From Sphingobacteriales bacterium (GTDB lineage Bacteria > Bacteroidota > Bacteroidia > Sphingobacteriales > Sphingobacteriaceae): DNA of 64,000 nt. This document shows positions 8,665 to 55,919 of this stretch, one piece after another (the stretch's first letter is position 1; each line of letters starts with the position of its first letter). Where the stretch lies: contig RDYW01000033.1 in assembly GCA_004293485.1 (NCBI GenBank), forward strand, positions 28,649 through 92,648, read 5' to 3'. The notes under the pieces are model-generated. The model had not been told where the DNA came from. It made no database searches and saw nothing but the letters and a program-made list of their open reading frames with translations. A program made the position numbers and the translations under genes.

Positions 8665-11187
8665 TTAATTAAAGCCACCCATTTGCTGTGCTATACTAAA
8701 TGTGAATGATTGTTTACCACCGTCTTGTAAACCCGTTATAGGGTCAAAAGCGTGGCCATAATCCAAACCTAGCAAGCCAAAAATAGGTAAAAATATTCGA
8801 GCACCTACGCCTACCGAACGGCGAACATTAAAAGGATTGAAACTGCTAAACCTATTCCAGGTGTTACCGCCCTCGGCAAAACCCAATACAAATACTGTTG
8901 CCGATTGGCTTAGTGAAATAGGGTAGCGCATTTCGAGCATATATTTTGTAAAAATAGGGCTACCAGAATTGGTAGCTATGCCTTCGGATGCTACAGCATT
9001 ATTGGCGTAGCCACGCATGGCTATTACTTCGGAGCCCTGTAAAAAATCGAAACCTTGCATACCATCGCCCCCAAGCTTAAACCTACCAAACGGCGCTTGC
9101 CCTACTTGCCGGTTATAAAAACCAATAAATCCAAATTGTGCTTGTGCTTTTAATATTAGCTTGCCATATATTTTTTGGAAAAATTGAGATTCGAATTTCC
9201 ATTTATGATATTCGGAAAACTGGTAACGCTGCGAGGTGGTTAAGTTATCATAATTTTTGCCGTTTAATAGCGAGTAGGGTGGGGTGGCTTGTACAGTAAA
9301 TTTTAAATTAGAGCCCGAGGTAGGAAATATAGGGGCATCAACTGAGTTGCGGCTTAAAACTTGGCTGATACTTAAATCGTACGAATCGCCGTTGGTAAAC
9401 AAAAATCCGCTGTAATTTCGTAGTTTATATTGCTGTAAATTGGCGGCATAATCAACCCTAAAATAATCGTCTGGAAATTTAAGTTGCTTACCTAAACTAA
9501 ACGTAATACCGTTTAGCCTAATTTTTTGTTGGTTAATATCGCTGTTAGGCCTGCCATTACTTTGCAATGATGTAAAGGCACTTATACCAAAGTAAACAGG
9601 TTTTTTACCGCCAAACCAAGGTTCCGAAAACGAAAAACTATACGATTGATAAAACTTTCCATTGGTTTGCCCTCTAATACTTAGTTTTTGCCCATCGCCT
9701 TTGGGTAGTGGTTTATAGGCTTTGGCATTAAAAATATTTTTTGCCGAAAAATTATTAAACGTTAAACCTAAAGTACCTACAATACGGCCACCGCCAAATC
9801 CACCAGAAAGTTCTACTTGGTCTGATGGTTTTTCTACTACAGTATATTGTATATCTACTGTTCCGTCGGCAGGGTTGGGTATGGGTTTCATATCCATTTT
9901 TTGTTCGTCGAAATTACCTAATTGTACAATTTGCCTTTGTGAGCGTATAAGTGCTTCTTTCGAAAATTTTTGCCCAGGTTTGGTACGTATTTCTCTTAGT
10001 ATTACTTTATCGTTGGTAAGTTCGTTTCCTTTAATAATTATTTTGTTGATGGTGTATTGTGGCCCTTCAGATAAGCGTACTTCAATATCAATGGTATCTT
10101 TATAAATGCGGGTTTGTATAGGGTCGATATTAAAGGTAAGATAGCCATCGTTTAAGTAAAGCGATGAAACATCGTCGTTTGATGGGCTGCTACGTAGGCG
10201 TTTTTCTAGTTTTTCTTCGCTAAATACTTCGCCTTTATCAATACGAAGTATTTGTTTTAGTATATCGCTGCTATATTTTGCATTGCCAGCAAAGGTTATG
10301 TTACCAAAATAGTATATGGGGCCTTCATGTATTTTTAAATCTATGGCTACGGTATTTTTATCATGCTTATATACCGAATCTGAAAGTATTTCGGCTTCGC
10401 GGTAGCCTTTTGCCCTCATCTTAGCAATCATGGTTGCTTTGTCTTCTTCGTATTTTTCTTTTAAAAATTTGCCCGATCCAAACACTTTATAAAATGCTTT
10501 TTGTTTCGTTTTTTTAAGATACTTTTTAAGTTTAGCATCTGTAAATATGGTGTTTCCTTCGATATTAATGGCGTGTACCTTTACTTTTCGGTGTTTATTT
10601 ACAGTTATGGCTACTATACGGCTGTTTACATCTGAAGTATCGTTGCTTATGGCTACATCAACCGAGGTGTTTAAATAGCCTTTATCTACAAAATGTTTTT
10701 TAATAACGGTATTTATAGTGTTGTTTAAATTTTCGTTTACAATTTTTCCTTTTTGGTTATTTAGTTTTTCTCTAATATCGGTGGTTTCGCTTTTGCTAAG
10801 TCCTTTAATATCAATACGCCCTACTCTTGGCCTTTCGGCTAGGTTTAAATCAAAAAAAATGGTGTCTTGTTTAATACTGGCAATTACTAATTCTACATTG
10901 TCGAATAATTTTTGTGCCCACAAGTTTTTTACTGCATTTGAGGTGGCATCGCTTGGTACAGTAATGGTTTCGCCTACTGTGAGTTTTGATAGGGTTATCA
11001 ATACCGATTTATCCAAATAAACTACTCCGTTTACATTTATGCCGCCTATAATATATTGTTTAGGGTTTAAATAAGCCGAACTATCGGTAGAGGTTTGGCT
11101 AGTATTTCTTGAGCGTAAAGAAGGTGCTTGTGCAAAACTTGTTACCGCAAAACCAAGTATAAGTAGTATAAAAAAGTATTTATTCAT
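8665..11187 (-). CDS. bamA: Outer membrane protein assembly factor BamA
   Basis: POTRA repeats, QVELSGGFGG, SFSEPW, loop-6 motif IAMRGY, ELRY-like EMRYP, FGLLGLDYG. Confidence 0.95.
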   Translation of the reverse strand: MNKYFFILLILGFAVTSFAQAPSLRSRNTSQTSTDSSAYLNPKQYIIGGINVNGVVYLDKSVLITLSKLTVGETITVPSDATSNAVKNLWAQKLFDNVELVIASIKQDTIFFDLNLAERPRVGRIDIKGLSKSETTDIREKLNNQKGKIVNENLNNTINTVIKKHFVDKGYLNTSVDVAISNDTSDVNSRIVAITVNKHRKVKVHAINIEGNTIFTDAKLKKYLKKTKQKAFYKVFGSGKFLKEKYEEDKATMIAKMRAKGYREAEILSDSVYKHDKNTVAIDLKIHEGPIYYFGNITFAGNAKYSSDILKQILRIDKGEVFSEEKLEKRLRSSPSNDDVSSLYLNDGYLTFNIDPIQTRIYKDTIDIEVRLSEGPQYTINKIIIKGNELTNDKVILREIRTKPGQKFSKEALIRSQRQIVQLGNFDEQKMDMKPIPNPADGTVDIQYTVVEKPSDQVELSGGFGGGRIVGTLGLTFNNFSAKNIFNAKAYKPLPKGDGQKLSIRGQTNGKFYQSYSFSFSEPWFGGKKPVYFGISAFTSLQSNGRPNSDINQQKIRLNGITFSLGKQLKFPDDYFRVDYAANLQQYKLRNYSGFLFTNGDSYDLSISQVLSRNSVDAPIFPTSGSNLKFTVQATPPYSLLNGKNYDNLTTSQRYQFSEYHKWKFESQFFQKIYGKLILKAQAQFGFIGFYNRQVGQAPFGRFKLGGDGMQGFDFLQGSEVIAMRGYANNAVASEGIATNSGSPIFTKYMLEMRYPISLSQSATVFVLGFAEGGNTWNRFSSFNPFNVRRSVGVGARIFLPIFGLLGLDYGHAFDPITGLQDGGKQSFTFSIAQQMGGFN

Positions 11188-32723: not shown

Positions 32724-32770
32724 TTTTGTATTTTATTAATTTAAAGTAATTTATTTGTTAATGGTTGTTT

Positions 32771-32886
32771 GTGTTAGGGATTGCAGCGTCATCCTTTTTT
32801 TCCTTAGCCCTAAATGGGAATATAAGGTTTCTTCTGATTTGGGGCTAATGAAAAAAAGATACAGCGAAAAGCCCGCCCGAACACCC
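32771..32886. repeat. REP/MITE-like palindromic element, copy A
   Basis: GTGTTAGGGATTGCAGCGTCATCCTTTTTTT-[TTAGCCCTAAAT..ATTTGGGGCTAA]-AAAAAAAGATACAGCGAAAAGCCCGCCCGAACACCC; arms match the element at 51031-51177 in inverted orientation. Confidence 0.8.
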
Positions 32887-45638: not shown

Positions 45639-45712
45639 GGTTGCATAGCTCAGCTGGATAGAGCAACTGCCTTCTAAGCAGTAGGTCTTTGGTTCGAATC
45701 CAAATGCGACCA
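45639..45712 (+). tRNA. tRNA-Arg (TCT)
   Basis: GGTTGCA/TGCGACC acceptor, ACTGC-CTTCTAA-GCAGT anticodon arm. Confidence 0.96.
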
Positions 45713-45715
45713 CAC

Positions 45716-45749
45716 AAAGCCTTTCAAGTAAAACTGAAAGGCTTTTTTT
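45716..45749 (+). terminator. Intrinsic terminator after tRNA-Arg
   Basis: AAAGCCTTTCA-agtaaaac-TGAAAGGCTTT followed by TTTT. Confidence 0.8.
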
Positions 45750-45772
45750 ACTTCAACGCATTTATTAAAGCA

Positions 45773-47353
45773 ATGAGTTTACAAACCGAAATTGATAAAA
45801 GAAGAACATTTGGCATCATAAGCCACCCCGATGCGGGCAAAACCACCCTAACCGAAAAACTATTACTTTTTGGCGGTGCTATACAAACCGCAGGCTCGGT
45901 AAAGCGTAATAAAATCGAAAAAACCGCCACCTCCGATTTTATGGAAATCGAAAAACAACGTGGTATATCAGTAGCTACATCGGTAATGGGTTTCGATTAT
46001 CATGATTTTAAAGTAAATATACTAGATACCCCGGGCCATAAGGATTTTGCCGAAGACACCTACCGTACTTTAACCGCCGTAGATTCGGTTATACTAGTGG
46101 TTGATTGTGTAAAAGGTGTAGAAGAACAAACCCGCAAACTTATGCAGGTATGCCGTATGCGCAATACTCCCGTAATTATTTTTATCAATAAAATGGATAG
46201 AGAAGGGCAAAACCCTTTCGACCTTTTAGACGAGCTAGAAACCGAACTCAACATAAGCACCCGCCCGTTAAGCTGGCCCATTGGCATTGGTAGTACTTTT
46301 AAAGGCGTTTTTAATATCTTTAACAATACTTTAAGCCTTTTTAGCGCCAATAAAAAACACATCGAAAATGATGTGGTAGAAATAAAATCACTTGATGATA
46401 AAAAACTAGACAGCATAGTAGGCCAAAATTTAGCTTCTAAATTGCGTGAAGATATTGAACTGATAGAAAGTTTTTACGAACCATTTAACGAAAGCCTTTA
46501 CAAAGAAGGCTATTTAGCCCCCGTGTTTTTTGGTAGTGCTATCAATAATTTTGGCGTTAAAGAATTGCTAGATACCTTTGTACGTATTGCCCCCCAACCG
46601 CAACCAAGAGCCACTTTAGAACGCTTAATAAGCCCTGCCGAAAGTAATTTTTCGGGTTTTGTATTTAAAATACATGCCAACTTAGATCCTAACCATAGAG
46701 ATAGAATTGCTTTTTGCCGTATATGCTCGGGCAAGTTCGAGCGAAATGTTTTTTACAAAAATACCCGAACACAAAAGAAGCTAAGGTTTGCATCGCCCAC
46801 CAGTTTTATGGCTAATGCCAAAAGTGTGATTGATGAGGCATGGCCTGGCGATGTAGTGGGTTTATACGATTCGGGAAACTTTAAAATAGGCGATACCATT
46901 ACCACTGGCGAAGATATTAGGTTTGTGGGTATCCCCAGTTTTTCGCCCGAAATTTTTAAAGAAATCGAAAACACCGACCCTATGAAATCCAAGCAATTGG
47001 AAAAAGGCATCCAGCAATTAACCGATGAAGGTGTGGCACAGTTATTTATCCAAAATCCGGGTAACCGTAAAATTATAGGCACCGTAGGCGAACTTCAATT
47101 TGAAGTGATACAATTTAGGCTACTGCAAGAGTACGGCGCATCGTGTATTTTTAGGCACTTAAATTTTACCAAAGCACATTGGTTTACCTGCCCCGATGCT
47201 TTAAAAATTAACGAATTTATACAACGTAACCACGCCAAAGTGGGTTTTGATAAGGAAAACCGCCCTGTACTATTTACCACCAGTGCCTGGGATTTAGATT
47301 ATACAAAGCGACAATACGAGCATATTGTTTTTTACGAAACATCGGAGTTTTAA
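45773..47353 (+). CDS. prfC: Peptide chain release factor 3
   Basis: [62 protein letters not shown]; ATG 45773. Confidence 0.98.
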
Positions 47354-49191: not shown

Positions 49192-50826
49192 TTAATCTAC
49201 GTTGTCATGCAAAAAAGAATTGTTTGGCCGTATTTCGGTTTGTCCATCCTCTAGCGAAAGCGTAAAACGAGAAACTATTGATTCCGAGGAATGGGGAACA
49301 TTATCCATAAGCATTTGCTTACGCTTATAGGCTGGTTCGTTTTCCATTTCTTGTAAGCCATTACTGGTGCGCAGTTTCATGCTTAAATCTTTTAAACGCA
49401 AAATGCGTTCTTTCGATTTTCGCAATTGTTCTTCCATCGATTCGTCGTTTTTATGCGCATCTACATCCACCAATTTTGGTGTTTCGGCAACAGGTGCAGC
49501 GGGTATAAAAACAGGCGTAGCAAATTCCGATTCCGAAATTTTAACATCAAACTTTAAAGCCGATGGTTCTTCGATTTCGGTAGGGGCTTCTTCTTTTTCT
49601 TCCTCTACCAATTGGTGTTTAATTATATCTTCACCAATATATTTGGTATCGCTTATCCAAGTGTTTTTTTCTTTTGTTGCGAAGGTGTGGCCAAATAAAT
49701 CAATCTGTTGCTTATCTTCTTTTTTAGGCACAGGCTGGCTATGCTCGGCAAGGGGTTTAATAAAATTATTGCTTGCTTGTAATACTTGGGCAACAGGTTT
49801 TATCAATGGGTTTTCGGCGTTTAAGTATTGTTTTACGGGTACGCTTTGGCGGGTTTGTTCCCGCTCTTCTTTGGTTTGAAAACCAGTAGCAATAATGGTT
49901 ACCGATATTTTTTCGCCTAGGTTTTCATCGCTACAGTTTCCCCATATTAAATCGGCCGATAGGCCTGCTTGTTCCTGTATAAAATCGGTAATAATGCTTA
50001 CCTCATCCATGGTAACTTCTTTAGTGCCCGAGCTTATGTTTAACAAAATATAGCTTGCACCTTCAATCTCGTTATCTTTTAATAATGGCGATGATAGCGC
50101 ACCTTTTACAGCTTTAAATGCCCGTTCTTCGCCCTCGGCCGAAAAACTTCCCATAATAGATACACCGCTATCTTTCATTACGGTACGTACATCTTTAAAA
50201 TCAACGTTTATGTATCCTGGTAAAGTAATAATTTCGGCAATGCCTTTAGCGGCGGTGGTTAATATATCATCGGCCTGGCCAAATGCCGAACCTAGGGTAA
50301 GGTTACCAAAAATCTCGCGAAGGCGATCGTTAGAAATTACAAGGTACGAATCTACATTTTTCTTCAGCTCTTCCAGCCCATCTTCGGCCTGCATTTTACG
50401 GCGTTTTCCTTCGAACGAAAAAGGCGTAGTAATAATGGCTACTGTTAGTATATCTAATTCGCGGGCTGCTTTAGCAATAATTGGGCTTGCGCCTGTGCCT
50501 GTGCCGCCGCCCATACCTGCGGTTATAAACAGCATTCGGGTATTGCTACCCAGCATATCTTTTATATCATCAATATTTTCGATGGCCGAGTTTTTACCCA
50601 CTTCGGGTATCGAACCTGCGCCCATTCCCTCGGTTAGGCTAGCACCTAATTGTACCTTATTGGGTATAGGGCTTAGCTCGAGTGCTTGGGCATCGGTGTT
50701 ACAAATAATAAAATCTACACCGGCTATGCCTTGCCTATACATGTGGTTTACAGCATTGCCACCGCCACCGCCTACACCTATTACTTTAATAATAGATGAT
50801 TTTTCTTTTAGCATTTCAAACTTCAT
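49192..50826 (-). CDS. ftsZ: Cell division protein FtsZ
   Basis: GVGGGGGNAV, GMGGGTGTG, NVDFKDV; long linker; C-terminal SFLHDNVD. Confidence 0.98.
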   Translation of the reverse strand: MKFEMLKEKSSIIKVIGVGGGGGNAVNHMYRQGIAGVDFIICNTDAQALELSPIPNKVQLGASLTEGMGAGSIPEVGKNSAIENIDDIKDMLGSNTRMLFITAGMGGGTGTGASPIIAKAARELDILTVAIITTPFSFEGKRRKMQAEDGLEELKKNVDSYLVISNDRLREIFGNLTLGSAFGQADDILTTAAKGIAEIITLPGYINVDFKDVRTVMKDSGVSIMGSFSAEGEERAFKAVKGALSSPLLKDNEIEGASYILLNISSGTKEVTMDEVSIITDFIQEQAGLSADLIWGNCSDENLGEKISVTIIATGFQTKEEREQTRQSVPVKQYLNAENPLIKPVAQVLQASNNFIKPLAEHSQPVPKKEDKQQIDLFGHTFATKEKNTWISDTKYIGEDIIKHQLVEEEKEEAPTEIEEPSALKFDVKISESEFATPVFIPAAPVAETPKLVDVDAHKNDESMEEQLRKSKERILRLKDLSMKLRTSNGLQEMENEPAYKRKQMLMDNVPHSSESIVSRFTLSLEDGQTEIRPNNSFLHDNVD

Positions 50827-50892
50827 ATACTTAATATTCAGTTTTTTAAATTAATTTACACTTAGGTTAATATGTATTGTAATGATATAACT

Positions 50893-50950
50893 TTTTCCAC
50901 AATGGTTTTCCACAAATGTTAGCCTGTTGAAAAATAAAAAATGTTGATAA
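50893..50950. promoter_or_regulatory. Cluster of four DnaA-box-like 9-mers
   Basis: TTTTCCACA at 50893 and 50906 (match TTWTNCACA); reverse TTTTCAACA at 50925-50933 and TTATCAACA at 50942-50950 (one mismatch each). Confidence 0.6.
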
Positions 50951-51030
50951 CTTAATTTTCTAAGCAGTTAAACATGTAACTAACTAGCTTCAATTGTTAT
51001 ATATAATGTATTTTTTTAAAATTATAATTT

Positions 51031-51177
51031 GGGCGTTTCCTGCCTGCGCAGGCAGGTAACACGCTTTCCACTACCTGCTTGCCAGCAGGCAAGTATCTTT
51101 TTTTTATTGCCCCCCATTTGCCAATTGCCCAAGATGGGGGGCAATAAAAAAAAGGATGCCGTTGCAATCGTTAACGC
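51031..51177. repeat. REP/MITE-like palindromic element, copy B, carrying two nested CCTGCCTGC-type palindromes
   Basis: GGGCGTTT[CCTGCCTGCGCAGGCAGG]TAACACGCTTTCCACTA[CCTGCTTGCCAGCAGGCAAG]TATCTTTTTTTT-hairpin ATTGCCCCCCAT/ATGGGGGGCAAT-AAAAAAAAGGATGCCGTTGCAATCGTTAACGC. Confidence 0.85.
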
Positions 51178-51239
51178 TCTTAAACAATGTTTAAACATGA
51201 TATTTAATTTCTTTTCAATCATCAAATTAAAATTAATAA

Positions 51240-52583
51240 TTACTTTAAAAAATCAGTATCGCTAATATCGTCTTTAATAAATTTTTTGCTTCCCTCAATT
51301 ATTGAAGCGAATAAGCCTTTTGATTTTGTAGGCTCGGCACTAATTTTAGTTTGCTTTGCTGTGGTGTTATCTTTAAGCATTTCGTCTTCTATTTTTTGGA
51401 TGCCTTTCATCAATAAACCAATACCTGTGGCGTACATGGGGCTTTTTAAATCTTCATATACATTTTTAGGCAGGGCTTCGTTTTTGGCCAAATGTTCGGT
51501 AGGGTAACCCACCCTACAATCGAAACCGGTAATAAATTCTACCAATTGGGTTACATGTTTTAGCTGCGCTCCACCGCCTGTAATTACGATACCGCCTATG
51601 AGTTTATTTTCGTAGTTGGACGATTTTATTTCGTAATACACATGTTCGATAATTTCTTCCATGCGGGCTTGTATTACATTGGCTAGGTTTTTTATCGATA
51701 TTTCTTTGGGTTCGCGGCCACGCAAGCTGGGTACGCATACAATTTCGTTGTCTTTATTTTCATCGGCCAGGGCCGAACCAAATTTAACTTTTAGCAGCTC
51801 GGCTTGGTTGCGCATAACGGCGCAGCCTTCTTTAATATCTTCGGTAATGCTATTGCCTCCAAAAGGGATTACTGCCGTATGGCGGATAATACCTTCGTGA
51901 AAAATAGCTACATCAGTAGTGCCACCGCCTACATCAACCAATACTACGCCGGCTTCTTTTTCTTCGTCGCTTAATACCGATTCGGACGATGCCAAAGGTT
52001 CTAATATCAAATCCTGTGTTTCTAAATCGGCATTGGTAACGCATTTCATAATATTTTTAATGGCGGTAACTTGGCCGGTTATAATATGAAAATTAGCTTC
52101 GAGCCTTACGCCAGCCATACCAATAGGGTCTTTTACACCAGGCTCGTTATCTACGGTAAACTCTTGCGGAAGCACATGAATAATTTCTTCGCCGGGGTTC
52201 ATGGCTAGTTTAAACATATCGTCGATTAGGCGGTCGATATCTTTTTTGCAAATTTCGGAGCTTAAATCTTTACGGGTTAATATGCCTCGGTGTTGTAGGC
52301 TTTTAATATGCTGCCCAGCAATACCTACGCTTACCACTCTAATATCCACATTTGATTGTGCACTGCCTTCTTTTACAGCATCTACAATGCCTTTTACAGT
52401 TTTTGCAATGTTAGATACTACGCCACGGGTTACTCCAGCCGATTCGGCTTTGCCCAAGCCCAGTACCTCTATTTTACCGTACTCGTTTCGGCGGCCTACA
52501 ATTACGCATATTTTGGTAGTACCAATATCCAACCCAACTACTATGGGCGAATTTTTACCTTGTTTTGTGATGCCTTTTTCCAT
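51240..52583 (-). CDS. ftsA: Cell division protein FtsA
   Basis: GLDIGTTKI, GVTRGVV, VLVDVGGGTTD, IPFGGNSIT, ITGGGAQL, YATGIGL. Confidence 0.97.
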   Translation of the reverse strand: MEKGITKQGKNSPIVVGLDIGTTKICVIVGRRNEYGKIEVLGLGKAESAGVTRGVVSNIAKTVKGIVDAVKEGSAQSNVDIRVVSVGIAGQHIKSLQHRGILTRKDLSSEICKKDIDRLIDDMFKLAMNPGEEIIHVLPQEFTVDNEPGVKDPIGMAGVRLEANFHIITGQVTAIKNIMKCVTNADLETQDLILEPLASSESVLSDEEKEAGVVLVDVGGGTTDVAIFHEGIIRHTAVIPFGGNSITEDIKEGCAVMRNQAELLKVKFGSALADENKDNEIVCVPSLRGREPKEISIKNLANVIQARMEEIIEHVYYEIKSSNYENKLIGGIVITGGGAQLKHVTQLVEFITGFDCRVGYPTEHLAKNEALPKNVYEDLKSPMYATGIGLLMKGIQKIEDEMLKDNTTAKQTKISAEPTKSKGLFASIIEGSKKFIKDDISDTDFLK

Positions 52584-52586
52584 TTT

Positions 52587-53465
52587 TTATAGCATTTTTT
52601 TTATTGAATCTTTTACAATTTTTTTAATCGTTTTTTGAATTAAACTATCGGCAACTGCCGTTTTTAAGGTGTCGGGTTTATGATATAAGGTATCTCGTTT
52701 TTCGCATACAATTTGCCCTTTATAACTTAGGTTAATGCTGCTGTAAGTTTGCCAGCCTACCTTGGGCATGGCTTTTTTATAAAATATATATAGGTTTTTA
52801 AATTTATTGCTTAGGCTATCGGCATTGCCTAAAATAATTTTTTGGTTGCCTAAACGGGGTACAAGTTCAATAACGTTATTTTGTGTTACATACACTTGCT
52901 CTATCTGCTCGTTCCATAAAGTATCGGTAGCAATAAAATGGGCAATGGCAAATACGCTTTTGCCCATCGGGGTTTTTAGCGTATCTATTTTACCATTAAA
53001 TGCTTCGTTAATAGCCCCATTGGCTACCAAAACCCTGGCGGTATAATGGCTTGATAGTGGTATTTTTAACCCTTGGGCATCTACATAAAAATCTTGCCCT
53101 GCGGTGTTAAATATGCGCAATATGGGTTCACGTTGTGTGATTTCGGCGTGTAGCGTACCTTCCATATCGGCGTAAACTTTGGCAAACAGTATAAAAGGAT
53201 TTGCTTTTAGTTTATCCTCTAGGTTTTGGATATTGATATAACGTAACCTTTTACCCACCAATTGTTTGTTATTGGCGTTTAAAATTTCGTCAACCTCGGC
53301 TTGTTCAATAAAAAACTGGTTGCCGGGCAATAGTACTTTTACTGTTTTGCAGGTTAATTCGGTTTTTTGGGTTTCGATAAAACTCATTAGCACCAGCAAT
53401 CCCGATAGGCTAATTGCCCACGCAAAAGTGTTAAATACCAAACGCCAGTTTATTTTTTTAAGCAT
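52587..53465 (-). CDS. ftsQ: Cell division protein FtsQ/DivIB
   Basis: Single TM, POTRA region, QREPILRI, ELVPRLG, YKGQIVC; dcw position. Confidence 0.88.
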   Translation of the reverse strand: MLKKINWRLVFNTFAWAISLSGLLVLMSFIETQKTELTCKTVKVLLPGNQFFIEQAEVDEILNANNKQLVGKRLRYINIQNLEDKLKANPFILFAKVYADMEGTLHAEITQREPILRIFNTAGQDFYVDAQGLKIPLSSHYTARVLVANGAINEAFNGKIDTLKTPMGKSVFAIAHFIATDTLWNEQIEQVYVTQNNVIELVPRLGNQKIILGNADSLSNKFKNLYIFYKKAMPKVGWQTYSSINLSYKGQIVCEKRDTLYHKPDTLKTAVADSLIQKTIKKIVKDSIKKML

Positions 53466-54810
53466 CTTTTAAACTGTTAAGTAAAGGTAAAACCAAGGTA
53501 TCAATATCGCCAGCACCTACGGTTAATAGTAGTTGGGGCTGTTTGTTTTTTATATAATCTAGGGCTTGTTGTTTACTGCAAATTTGCTTTTTATTTAGGG
53601 TAATTTTATCTAACAACATTTGGCTATTTACGTTTTTTATCGGCAGCTCGCGGGCTGGGTAAATATCTAACAATACCAAATCATCGGCAGTGCTTAAAAC
53701 GTGTGCAAAGGCATCGGCAAAATCCCGGGTACGGGTAAATAAATGTGGCTGAAAAATTACGGTTAATTCCTTATCGGGATATAAGGTTTTTATCGCTGTA
53801 AAGCAAGCCTTTAACTCTTCGGGGTGGTGGGCATAATCGTCCACATATATTTTATTAGCTTTAAGCTGATACTCGAAACGCCTTTTTACCCCCTTAAATG
53901 AGTGTAATGCTTCACGAATTCGGTTTACATCAATATCCATTAAAAGTGCTACTTGTATGGCAGCAACGGCGTTTTCGATATTGTGCTGGCCAGGCAAACC
54001 TAAAATTAAGCCTTCTAATTGTAGGTTTTGATTTTTAAAATCGAACACAAATGCACCGTTTTCTATACGAATATTATAGGCTTGGGCATCGGCTTTGCCA
54101 GTAATTGAATAGGTTGTGCCTGTGCTTACATCGAGCCCCAGCTTGGCAATTAAGGTACCATCGGGTTTTATTTGCGAGGCAAATAATTGGAACGATTGCA
54201 CCAAGTGGCTTTCGTCGCCATAAATATCCAGGTGGTCGGCATCCATTGATGTTATAATGGCAATATCGGGATGTAGGGTAAGGAACGATCTATCGTACTC
54301 ATCGGCTTCCACCACCAAAACATTATTAGTTCCAAACAGCACATTGGTATTGTAATTGCTGCTTATGCCCCCCAAAAATGCCGAACAATTATTGCCCGAA
54401 CTTTGTAAAATATGTGCTATTAAACAACTGGTGGTGGTTTTGCCGTGTGTGCCTGCCACAGCAACGGTAAACATACCTTTGGATAATATGCCTAAAACCT
54501 GCGAACGTTTTTGCAGCTCGAACCCGTTTTGTTTAAAATAATTTAAAATGGGCGAGTTTGCGGGTATGGCTGGGGTGTAAATAATTAAGGTGTTAGGCGT
54601 GTTTACCGTAAACGCTTGCGGAATTTTATCAACGCTATCATCGTAATTTACCGCCATACCTTCGGCAATTAAAGCCAAGGTTAGGGGTGTTTCGGTTTTA
54701 TCGTAACCGCACACTTGGCAACCAATGTGGTGAAAGTAGCGAGCAAGTCCGCTCATACCTATGCCACCTATACCTACTAAATAAACTTTTTGTATATCGG
54801 CTAGTATCAT
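53458..54810 (-). CDS. murC: UDP-N-acetylmuramate-L-alanine ligase
   Basis: GIGGIGMSG, AGTHGKTTT, EADEYDRSF, DADHLD, GVKRRF, DDYAHHP. Confidence 0.97.
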   Translation of the reverse strand: MILADIQKVYLVGIGGIGMSGLARYFHHIGCQVCGYDKTETPLTLALIAEGMAVNYDDSVDKIPQAFTVNTPNTLIIYTPAIPANSPILNYFKQNGFELQKRSQVLGILSKGMFTVAVAGTHGKTTTSCLIAHILQSSGNNCSAFLGGISSNYNTNVLFGTNNVLVVEADEYDRSFLTLHPDIAIITSMDADHLDIYGDESHLVQSFQLFASQIKPDGTLIAKLGLDVSTGTTYSITGKADAQAYNIRIENGAFVFDFKNQNLQLEGLILGLPGQHNIENAVAAIQVALLMDIDVNRIREALHSFKGVKRRFEYQLKANKIYVDDYAHHPEELKACFTAIKTLYPDKELTVIFQPHLFTRTRDFADAFAHVLSTADDLVLLDIYPARELPIKNVNSQMLLDKITLNKKQICSKQQALDYIKNKQPQLLLTVGAGDIDTLVLPLLNSLKDA

Positions 54811-55919
54811 ATTTTATGGGCTAGTTTAAATATTTGTTTGGCAATATCCGTATCGGCATTGGGCAAGGCTAGTTGGGCAATATTGTTGCTTAGGCTTTGC
54901 ATTAGTTTGCTATCGTTTAATAGTTTTATAGCAGCATCAACTAAATCGGTTTCGGCATTTTTATCGGTTACCAAAAGGGCGCAATTTTTATCAATTAATG
55001 CGTTGGCGTTTTTGGTTTGATGGTCTTCGGCCACGTTAGGCGATGGCACTAAAATTACAGGTTTTTGTACCATACACAGTTCGGCAATGGTGCCTGCTCC
55101 CGCTCTGGAAATGATAACATCGGCGGCAGCGTAGGCAAAATCCATGCGGTTTAAAAACTCGTAAATTTTTATGCCAGCATCTTTACTTCGGTTGCCGTAT
55201 TGTTCAATAATTCCCTTGTAATAGTATTTACCTGTTTGCCATATTAGTTGTATATGGTTTTCTTCGAGCTTGGCTAACCCTGCTAATATGGTTTTGTTTA
55301 GCGTACCAGCGCCTAGGCTTCCGCCAGTAAGTAGTATGGTTTTTTTTATCGGCGATAAGCCAAAATATTGTAAAGCTTCGTTTCGTTTACCTTCAATAGC
55401 TACCGATGCTTGCCTAATAGGGTTGCCTGTTTTTATAATTTTACTAGCTGCAAAAAAGGCTTCCATCCCATCAAAAGCTACACATATTTTACTGGCTTTT
55501 TTACCTAAATATTTATTGGTAATGCCTGCATACGAGTTTTGTTCTTGTATTAAAATAGGCACATTTTTTAACGATGCCGCATACAATAAAGGCCCCGATG
55601 CGTAGCCGCCTACACCTACCACCACATTGGGCTTAAAGTTTTTAATAATGGTGCTGGCATGTAGCACACTTTTTAATACCTTAAACGGAAGGGCTAAATT
55701 TTTTAATAAATTATTACGCTGAAAACCTTTAATATCTAAACCAATAATTTGATAGCCTGCGGCGGGTACTTTATCCATCTCCATTTTGCCCAGTGCACCT
55801 ACAAAAAGTATTTGGGTGCGGCTATCTATTTGGCGCAAAGCATTGGCAATAGCAATAGCAGGGAAAATATGCCCCCCAGTGCCGCCGCCGCTAATGATAA
55901 TTCGTTTTGCTGTTTCCAT
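54807..55919 (-). CDS. murG: Undecaprenyl-PP-MurNAc-pentapeptide N-acetylglucosaminyl transferase
   Basis: GGGTGGHIFP, GGYASGP, EQNSYAG, GNPIR, GGSLGA, SRAGA, EDHQTKNA. Confidence 0.97.
   Translation of the reverse strand: METAKRIIISGGGTGGHIFPAIAIANALRQIDSRTQILFVGALGKMEMDKVPAAGYQIIGLDIKGFQRNNLLKNLALPFKVLKSVLHASTIIKNFKPNVVVGVGGYASGPLLYAASLKNVPILIQEQNSYAGITNKYLGKKASKICVAFDGMEAFFAASKIIKTGNPIRQASVAIEGKRNEALQYFGLSPIKKTILLTGGSLGAGTLNKTILAGLAKLEENHIQLIWQTGKYYYKGIIEQYGNRSKDAGIKIYEFLNRMDFAYAAADVIISRAGAGTIAELCMVQKPVILVPSPNVAEDHQTKNANALIDKNCALLVTDKNAETDLVDAAIKLLNDSKLMQSLSNNIAQLALPNADTDIAKQIFKLAHKI

Follow-up and report, generated by a model that had tools for sequence, protein, structure and literature searches.

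Results

An array of four DnaA-box-like sites lies between ftsA and ftsZ

The DNA analysed here is a 64,000-nt stretch from a Sphingobacteriales bacterium (the window; coordinates are positions of this whole stretch unless a contig is named), and it belongs to an assembly of 2.2 Mb in 89 contigs that is 95.5% complete. Our subject is the spacer between two division genes of this window, ftsA and ftsZ, which carries four sites resembling TTWTNCACA, the box bound by the replication initiator DnaA. The ftsZ gene (49192–50826, minus strand) is the last gene of the division and cell wall (dcw) cluster and encodes a protein of 544 amino acids with the Pfam domains Tubulin and FtsZ_C; the product scores 375 bits against the NCBIfam model TIGR00065 and so reaches the equivalog cut-off of 295. 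The ftsA gene (51240–52583, minus strand) encodes 447 amino acids with the Pfam domains FtsA and SHS2_FTSA and matches the NCBIfam equivalog TIGR01174 at 379 bits. An earlier, sequence-only reading of this DNA had placed the two genes 413 bp apart and had described two perfect and two one-mismatch boxes within 58 bp, the last of them 66 nt from the ftsZ ATG, together with an almost pure A/T run. All of this was borne out: the gap spans 50827–51239, the positions and counts of the boxes at 50893–50950 are right, the distance to the ATG is 66 nt, and 34 of the 36 positions in the run at 50995–51030 are A or T.

Read in the sense of ftsZ, the gap consists of ~50 nt of AT-rich sequence, a structured element of ~165 bp (51021–51187), an AT-rich filler and then the box array. 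The first two boxes face ftsZ. Box 1 (50942–50950, minus strand) is TTATCAACA and has one mismatch to the consensus (C6 to A), and box 2 (50925–50933, minus strand) is TTTTCAACA, also with one mismatch, where most relatives have TTTTCCACA. The other two boxes, box 3 (50906–50914) and box 4 (50893–50901), are both perfect copies of TTTTCCACA on the plus strand and appear as TGTGGAAAA in the sense of ftsZ. The spacers are 8 nt between boxes 1 and 2, 10 nt between boxes 2 and 3 (ending in TAACATT) and 4 nt between boxes 3 and 4. Five nucleotides past box 4 lies TATCATTACA (50878–50887, minus strand), the window form of a conserved element, TAATATTACA, which is a candidate –7/–10 promoter element. 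The remaining 51 nt to the ATG (50827–50877, minus strand) are the presumed ftsZ leader, which is poorly conserved except for a CTGA(T/A) motif ~13 nt before the ATG.

Boxes as such are not enriched in the window, where we counted 10 perfect boxes against 10.2 expected and 218 one-mismatch boxes against 232 expected. We therefore asked about the cluster itself, counting sites with at least four relaxed boxes in 58 bp, at least two of them perfect, and comparing these with sequences shuffled within 300-bp blocks. The ftsZ array was the sole site of this kind in the 2.2-Mb genome, and the shuffles gave 0.07 sites per genome. Taken alone, rarity judged from base composition is suggestive only; it is because the layout and spacing of the boxes are conserved across the family that we regard the cluster as going beyond chance. 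Other box clusters in the same genome (on contigs C71, C69, C50, C4, C28 and C19) were considered and set aside; they are loose or lie in coding DNA, and none resembles the array.

The array is conserved across Sphingobacteriaceae

To examine conservation, ftsZ loci were taken from public genomes and from even samples of the family and the order, and were scanned with a scored search for the layout of a forward box, 8–11 nt, a forward box, 9–12 nt, a reverse box, 3–5 nt and a reverse box. The four-box layout was present in 112 of 131 Sphingobacteriaceae loci and in 76 of 78 loci of a second set composed only of Mucilaginibacter. The genera that carry it include Pedobacter, Mucilaginibacter, Pelobium, Daejeonella, Arcticibacter, Pseudopedobacter, Hufsiella and Paradesertivirga, and in many relatives three or four of the boxes are perfect. 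The spacing is regular. Gaps of 9, 11 and 4 nt occur in 86 of 104 distinct sequences, box 4 ends 65–66 nt before the ATG in 87 of these (~85% of loci), and in the family loci a constant 5 nt separates box 4 from TAATATTACA. The entire spacer between ftsA and ftsZ is ~126–132 bp long in most relatives, with box 1 directly after the ftsA stop codon. Among 28 genomes sampled from the phylum outside the family, none had a box cluster upstream of ftsZ.

We then compared the mean pairwise identity of the different parts of the region in 39 representatives, which share less than 90% identity over it. The identity was 0.875 for box 1, 0.963 for box 2, 0.957 for box 3, 0.884 for box 4 and 0.908 for the TAATATTACA element. 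The spacers between the boxes had an identity of 0.554 and the rest of the leader 0.514. As a comparison, the first and second codon positions of ftsZ had an identity of 0.968, its third codon positions 0.547, and invariant four-fold sites 0.444. The boxes are thus held as tightly as the positions that encode FtsZ, a protein that ranks among the most conserved in bacteria, whereas the intervening DNA changes at close to the neutral rate. These data show that the array is under strong purifying selection across the family, and it is almost certainly a functional cis-element.

The sites vary mostly as DnaA boxes do

Within the boxes, positions 1, 2, 4, 7, 8 and 9 are nearly invariant. The bases that vary are A or T at position 3 and any base at position 5, the two places where TTWTNCACA itself is degenerate, together with C or A at position 6. 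The column of box 3 reads TGTGGAWAA in nearly all of the 104 distinct sequences. A search for the core of the array, TTTTCCACA-N9–12-TGTGGAWAA, found it in 33 of 60 family genomes, at one locus in each, 80–110 bp upstream of ftsZ; a control with the reversed pattern gave 0–1 matches per genome.

The one extra match in the 60 genomes is a second copy of the palindrome TTTTCCACA-N11-TGTGGAAAA (L277; G043:C64:11768–11796). This copy lies just downstream of ahpC/ahpD-like genes and takes the form of a terminator-like hairpin.

The genome of the window encodes a DnaA protein on contig C8 (PF00308 match, 211 bits). Its domain IV aligns to the E. coli structure 1J1V (E value 4e-17) and retains the RDH(S/T)TV segment. 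The recognition segment reads GGRDHSTVIYA, compared with GGRDHTTVLHA in E. coli, and the Tyr in it is also found in the DnaA of M. tuberculosis. As in a member of a DnaA regulon, consensus boxes are present at the locus, they are conserved beyond the neutral expectation, and the genome encodes a DnaA whose DNA-binding domain is predicted to read canonical boxes. From these sequence features, the protein that binds the array is quite probably DnaA.

The number of dnaA genes was not the same in all relatives searched. A Pedobacter sp. with a complete genome of 6.57 Mb (G003, the relative behind locus L024) has three full-length genes with the DnaA domain at ~1.67, 2.02 and 5.22 Mb (207–213 bits each) and a shorter fourth match. 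In each of the four other complete relatives searched, one full-length dnaA was present, and one of these genomes also has a weak partial match.

The long gap and the AT-rich tract come from an insertion

The structured element at 51021–51187, between ftsA and box 1, is a dispersed repeat resembling repetitive extragenic palindromic (REP) sequences or miniature inverted-repeat transposable elements (MITEs). Searches with blastn showed that at least 12 other contigs of the genome carry full or partial copies, at 84–100% identity. The repeat holds a hairpin with a perfect 21-bp stem (51097–51154) flanked by T and A runs, gives terminator-like matches, and contains two nested palindromes (51039–51056 and 51074–51093) that are specific to the window when compared with the copies at L002 and L003. 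Both the dispersed copies and the palindromic structure are as expected for a REP/MITE-like element, and this assignment concerns the insertion, not the boxes.

Between this repeat and box 1 lies the AT-rich filler (50951–51020). It holds most of the A/T run at 50995–51030, which extends a few bases into the repeat. The insertion, including the filler, was found only in the window and its two closest public relatives, L002 and L003. The filler is missing from L004, L005 and every other genus; in these, the ftsA stop codon is immediately followed by box 1. The 413-bp gap and its AT-rich tract therefore result from a lineage-specific REP-like insertion and are not part of the box element, and the suggestion that the tract serves as an unwinding element finds no support.

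Extra DNA has entered this region elsewhere in the family. Between the ftsA stop codon and box 1, ~270 bp are inserted in the window and ~50 bp at L176, which belongs to another genus, and at L177 extra DNA lies downstream of the promoter-like element. Among the loci compared, we saw no insertion inside the array. That the array remains intact and stays with ftsZ in spite of these insertions argues for, although it does not prove, a promoter of ftsZ's own at or just after the array.

The array is far from the skew-defined origin

The sequence-only reading had also raised the possibility that the boxes mark an origin that is not adjacent to dnaA. To locate the origin we used the GC skew of relatives that carry the array. 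For one complete genome, from a Pedobacter (4.65 Mb), sampling at 232-kb intervals gave negative skew at 1.39–3.25 Mb and positive skew elsewhere; a contiguous 292-kb stretch was read to find the minimum, and the cumulative skew was lowest at 3.317–3.327 Mb. The ftsZ and dnaA genes of this genome are at 4.498 and 4.142 Mb, respectively. A second complete genome, from an Arcticibacter (4.87 Mb), has its minimum at ~1.456 Mb and carries dnaA at 0.797 Mb and ftsZ at 2.651 Mb. In both relatives ftsZ is 1.18 Mb from the skew-minimum region, the nadA–nadB spacer described below, and lies in uniformly positive skew. A Mucilaginibacter genome has a weaker skew that is positive on both sides of ftsZ (1.60 Mb) and changes sign between 0.6 and 1.3 Mb. 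The window's own contig has no clean skew switch at the array.

An origin at this site, or half of a split origin, would be in keeping with the presence of an AT-rich tract next to the DnaA-box cluster in the window, with the lack of a stronger box cluster elsewhere in the 95%-complete assembly, and with a dnaA gene that has no adjacent boxes. Apart from the skew data of the three relatives, the orientation of the genes speaks against it. The ftsA and ftsZ genes are co-directional across the site, and an origin there would put the whole block from mraZ to ftsA head-on to one fork. In most relatives a region of ~126–132 bp leaves no room for an unwinding element, and we saw no series of boxes in one direction leading into a GC-rich segment and trinucleotide repeats. 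What the array shares with an oriC is the cluster of DnaA boxes; it is not located at the skew minimum and has no conserved AT-rich unwinding element. We therefore reject the oriC reading on the basis of skew, gene orientation, region size and the lack of conservation of the AT tract, and consider an origin here exceedingly improbable. An origin next to dnaA was likewise discarded, as the gap upstream of the genome's own dnaA is 96 bp long and without boxes.

The skew points to a different place. In the Pedobacter and Arcticibacter genomes the minimum is within 0–18 kb of a divergent spacer of 400–500 bp between nadA and nadB, whose length and several sequence blocks are kept across 34 family genomes. 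These spacers contain 35 perfect boxes in 14.9 kb compared with 2.4 expected (~14-fold; at most 8 in 500 shuffles), and in several genomes tandem boxes occur 11 bp apart. In 11 genomes ftsZ is 0.84–1.42 Mb from nadA–nadB and is always transcribed away from it. The copy in the genome of the window (contig C69, ~8742–9150) is too near the contig end for a skew test. The nadA–nadB spacer is probably the oriC of Sphingobacteriaceae, unlinked to dnaA. Literature searches on Sphingobacteriaceae and other Bacteroidota gave no account of an oriC or of DnaA boxes at ftsZ. The sequence-only reading had named a distant skew switch, no DnaA binding and no conservation of the 9-mers as the combination that would speak against it; of these, the switch is indeed distant, yet the 9-mers are conserved.

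A similar module occurs at dnaA promoters

Boxes are also found upstream of dnaA in part of the family. In four Pedobacter genomes (L272, L274, L275 and L276), the boxes TGTGGAAAA, TTATCCACA and TGTTGATAA are conserved there, and the last of them is followed after ~6 nt by (C/G)AATATTCG, or by CAATCTTCG in one genome. This module parallels the succession of box 4, AGTGT and TAATATTACA at ftsZ. A genome-wide search for a reverse box, 4–8 nt and AATATT was noisy (0–4 matches per genome in controls), and only ftsZ and dnaA recurred across genera. The boxes at nadA–nadB and at the dnaA promoters are single or form 11-bp tandems, as expected for a protein that recognizes monomer sites, such as DnaA. 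At ftsZ, the element TA(A/T)(T/C)ATTACA is, judging from its conservation and position, most likely the –7/–10 part of an ftsZ-specific promoter.

Other features of the window

The genes around the array are all on the minus strand. Upstream of ftsA lie murC (53458–54810) and murG (54807–55919), and a glutathione peroxidase gene comes after ftsZ. The position of ftsQ, between murC and ftsA, is taken by an open reading frame of 292 amino acids (52587–53465, minus strand) that has no Pfam or NCBIfam match above threshold and is probably a divergent FtsQ. Farther away, a match to the Rfam Flavo-1 small RNA (32769–32882, plus strand) is barely over the gathering score (46.9 compared with 42 bits). 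The longest open reading frame for prfC (45689–47353, plus strand), with a TTG start at 45689, overlaps a tRNA gene at 45639–45712; since the family match starts near residue 29–33, the true start is probably farther downstream.

Discussion

A proposed role for the array

The element described here is distant from the skew-defined origin, is unique in the genome and stays with ftsZ when DNA is inserted nearby. Of the two explanations in the sequence-only reading, the origin falls away and DnaA-regulated expression of ftsZ gains ground from the phylogenetic footprint, from variation at the degenerate positions of the box, from the fixed distances to the ATG and to the promoter-like element, from the occurrence of the 9-mers at the skew minimum and at dnaA, and from a DnaA with an intact domain IV. 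On these grounds we favor, with a fair degree of confidence, the idea that the array is a DnaA operator that controls transcription of ftsZ.

In such a mechanism, DnaA would bind the four boxes, two facing ftsZ and two facing back, and the amount of DnaA or its ATP/ADP state would set the transcription of ftsZ so that the supply of Z-ring material tracks the replication cycle. The –7/–10 part of the promoter would be TA(A/T)(T/C)ATTACA, 5 nt past the array, followed by a leader of ~50 nt. With a transcription start a few bases past this element, boxes 4 and 3 would be at approximately –15 to –45 and boxes 2 and 1 at approximately –55 to –100. We favor negative control, in which high levels of active DnaA repress ftsZ and the repression is lifted after initiation, because the Pedobacter dnaA promoters share the module and dnaA is classically auto-repressed. 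By analogy with Caulobacter, activation of ftsZ would be nearly as likely as repression. In a further variant, DnaA may act as a roadblock to read-through from ftsA.

Several observations weigh against this proposal. Neither the canonical Bacteroidota –7 element, TAnnTTTG (PMC6847099, PMC9723704), nor the –33 element, TTTG, is conserved anywhere in the region; the only recurrent 5/6 match to TAnnTTTG is formed by the ftsA stop codon and box 1. A sigma-70 scan of the region was also no better than shuffles, and for these two reasons the assignment of the promoter draws on conservation only. The lack of canonical elements would mean an atypical promoter, which fits one that depends on a factor or is occluded by it. 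The genome's own dnaA promoter (C8:29754–29849) has no box, having either lost it or never had one, with GAATATTCG retained. About one-third of the sampled family genera lack the array or have boxes 1 and 2 only, and those without the full array mostly have the most divergent FtsZ and short spacers. Its absence from these genera and from outside the family indicates that the array is not essential for expression of ftsZ. In E. coli, DnaA boxes upstream of ftsZ are non-functional (Smith et al., 1996; reviewed in PMC8203912).

Alternative explanations

The nested inverted-repeat geometry of the array also suits a dimeric or tetrameric regulator, and the resemblance to DnaA boxes could be a coincidence in an operator for another transcription factor of this kind. 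The core is a near-perfect palindrome, TTTTCCACA-N11-TGTGGAAAA, with a fixed spacer of 11 nt; it is present once per genome, between a second pair of sites. Boxes 1, 2 and 4 frequently have the C6 to A change, which takes them outside the DnaA consensus, and for the module of a box and AATATT no wider regulon was found beyond ftsZ and dnaA. By contrast, each half-site varies on its own, chiefly at the positions where the DnaA consensus has W or N, the 9-mers are enriched in the skew-minimum region and at dnaA promoters in arrangements that are not palindromic, and no candidate regulator gene is linked to the locus. We consider another regulator unlikely. The same inverted repeats could form an RNA or DNA hairpin in the ftsA–ftsZ transcript, acting as an attenuator, an RNase processing site or an mRNA stabilizer, with the box likeness as a by-product. 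In many genomes box 2 could pair with box 3 and box 1 with box 4, which would give a stem in two tiers around an 11-nt loop. However, the variable positions break pairing at random and show no compensatory substitutions: box 3 becomes TGTGGATAA in 20 sequences with box 2 unchanged (T:T at position 3 of boxes 2 and 3 in all 20), and position 6 of boxes 1 and 4 can pair in only 38 of the 101 sequences. The would-be stem is not followed by a T-run, it is the sequence and not the pairing that is conserved, and there was no Rfam match at the array. The lack of covariation and of an Rfam match led us to reject the hairpin, which is very improbable.

DnaA might also bind the array with little direct effect on ftsZ if the site serves mainly to manage DnaA, either as a sink like datA or in the manner of a DnaA-reactivating sequence (DARS). 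The array is the densest cluster of canonical boxes in its own genome, perfect boxes are more abundant in it than in the candidate origin of Pedobacter, and its distance to that origin is fairly constant (0.84–1.42 Mb in 11 genomes). The head-to-head orientation of the boxes recalls the core of DARS. Against this, the fixed 65–66 nt to the ATG and 5 nt to TAATATTACA amount to a constraint on promoter geometry that a pure sink does not need, and there are only four boxes. No accessory sites of the IHF or Fis type were identified, although none were specifically sought. We judge such a role, on its own, to be quite improbable. A combination of the two functions is distinctly unlikely as well: the array could be the highest-affinity DnaA locus of the Sphingobacteriaceae chromosome, gating ftsZ and at the same time acting as a datA- or DARS-like modulator of the DnaA pool at a fairly constant quarter-chromosome from the origin. 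If this were so, duplication of the array would signal the middle of replication, with feedback on initiation as well as on division, and one cis-element would act as a cell-cycle checkpoint in a phylum with no known cell-cycle circuitry. A DnaA operator for ftsZ is thus the reading that we retain.

Significance and comparison with known systems

How bacteria couple division to chromosome replication is an open question. To our knowledge, Caulobacter is the only case in which DnaA has been shown to control ftsZ directly, and we know of nothing established about cell-cycle control in Bacteroidota. DnaA-box operators at cell-cycle genes are known already; what is new is a regular, deeply conserved array of four boxes at ftsZ. 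The prediction that follows from it is clear and could be tested at low cost in soil bacteria that grow in culture. There is also a practical consequence, in that origin predictors based on box density could mis-place oriC at ftsZ in Sphingobacteriaceae genomes.

The array shares with the basal unwinding system of bacterial oriC (PMC6669920) the presence of several close DnaA boxes. It differs in that it is not at a skew minimum, has no conserved AT-rich unwinding element and lacks tandem same-direction boxes with trinucleotide repeats after them. Clusters of DnaA boxes outside the origin are known from the DnaA-box clusters (DBCs) of B. subtilis (PMC2533591) and from datA and DARS of E. coli (PMC4585315). 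Compared with DBCs and datA, the array is likewise away from oriC, but it is much smaller and keeps a fixed distance to a putative promoter. No accessory-protein sites were identified at it. In the auto-regulated dnaA promoters of E. coli and B. subtilis, which contain DnaA boxes (reviewed in PMC8203912), the boxes overlap or abut core promoter elements, as they would here, whereas the target of the array is ftsZ. Boxes in ftsQA of E. coli were once proposed to couple division to initiation (Masters, 1989; Garrido, 1993; reviewed in PMC8203912). Like the array they are inside the dcw cluster and upstream of ftsZ, but they lie in coding DNA, whereas the array is intergenic and ordered and has a strong phylogenetic footprint.

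The closest precedent is Caulobacter crescentus, whose ftsZ promoter is a DnaA target, both bound and controlled by the initiator (Hottes et al., 2005; Fernandez-Fernandez et al., 2011, PMC3193534; reviewed in PMC8203912). Both promoters have DnaA boxes, and the logic proposed is the same, with the initiator serving as a transcription factor that ties division to replication. In Caulobacter DnaA activates ftsZ and its binding has been shown in vitro, whereas the array belongs to a different phylum and its function is predicted from sequence. The array is further set apart from Caulobacter by its four boxes in a fixed convergent layout just upstream of a non-canonical –7/–10-like element, an arrangement that has been kept over ~190 genomes.

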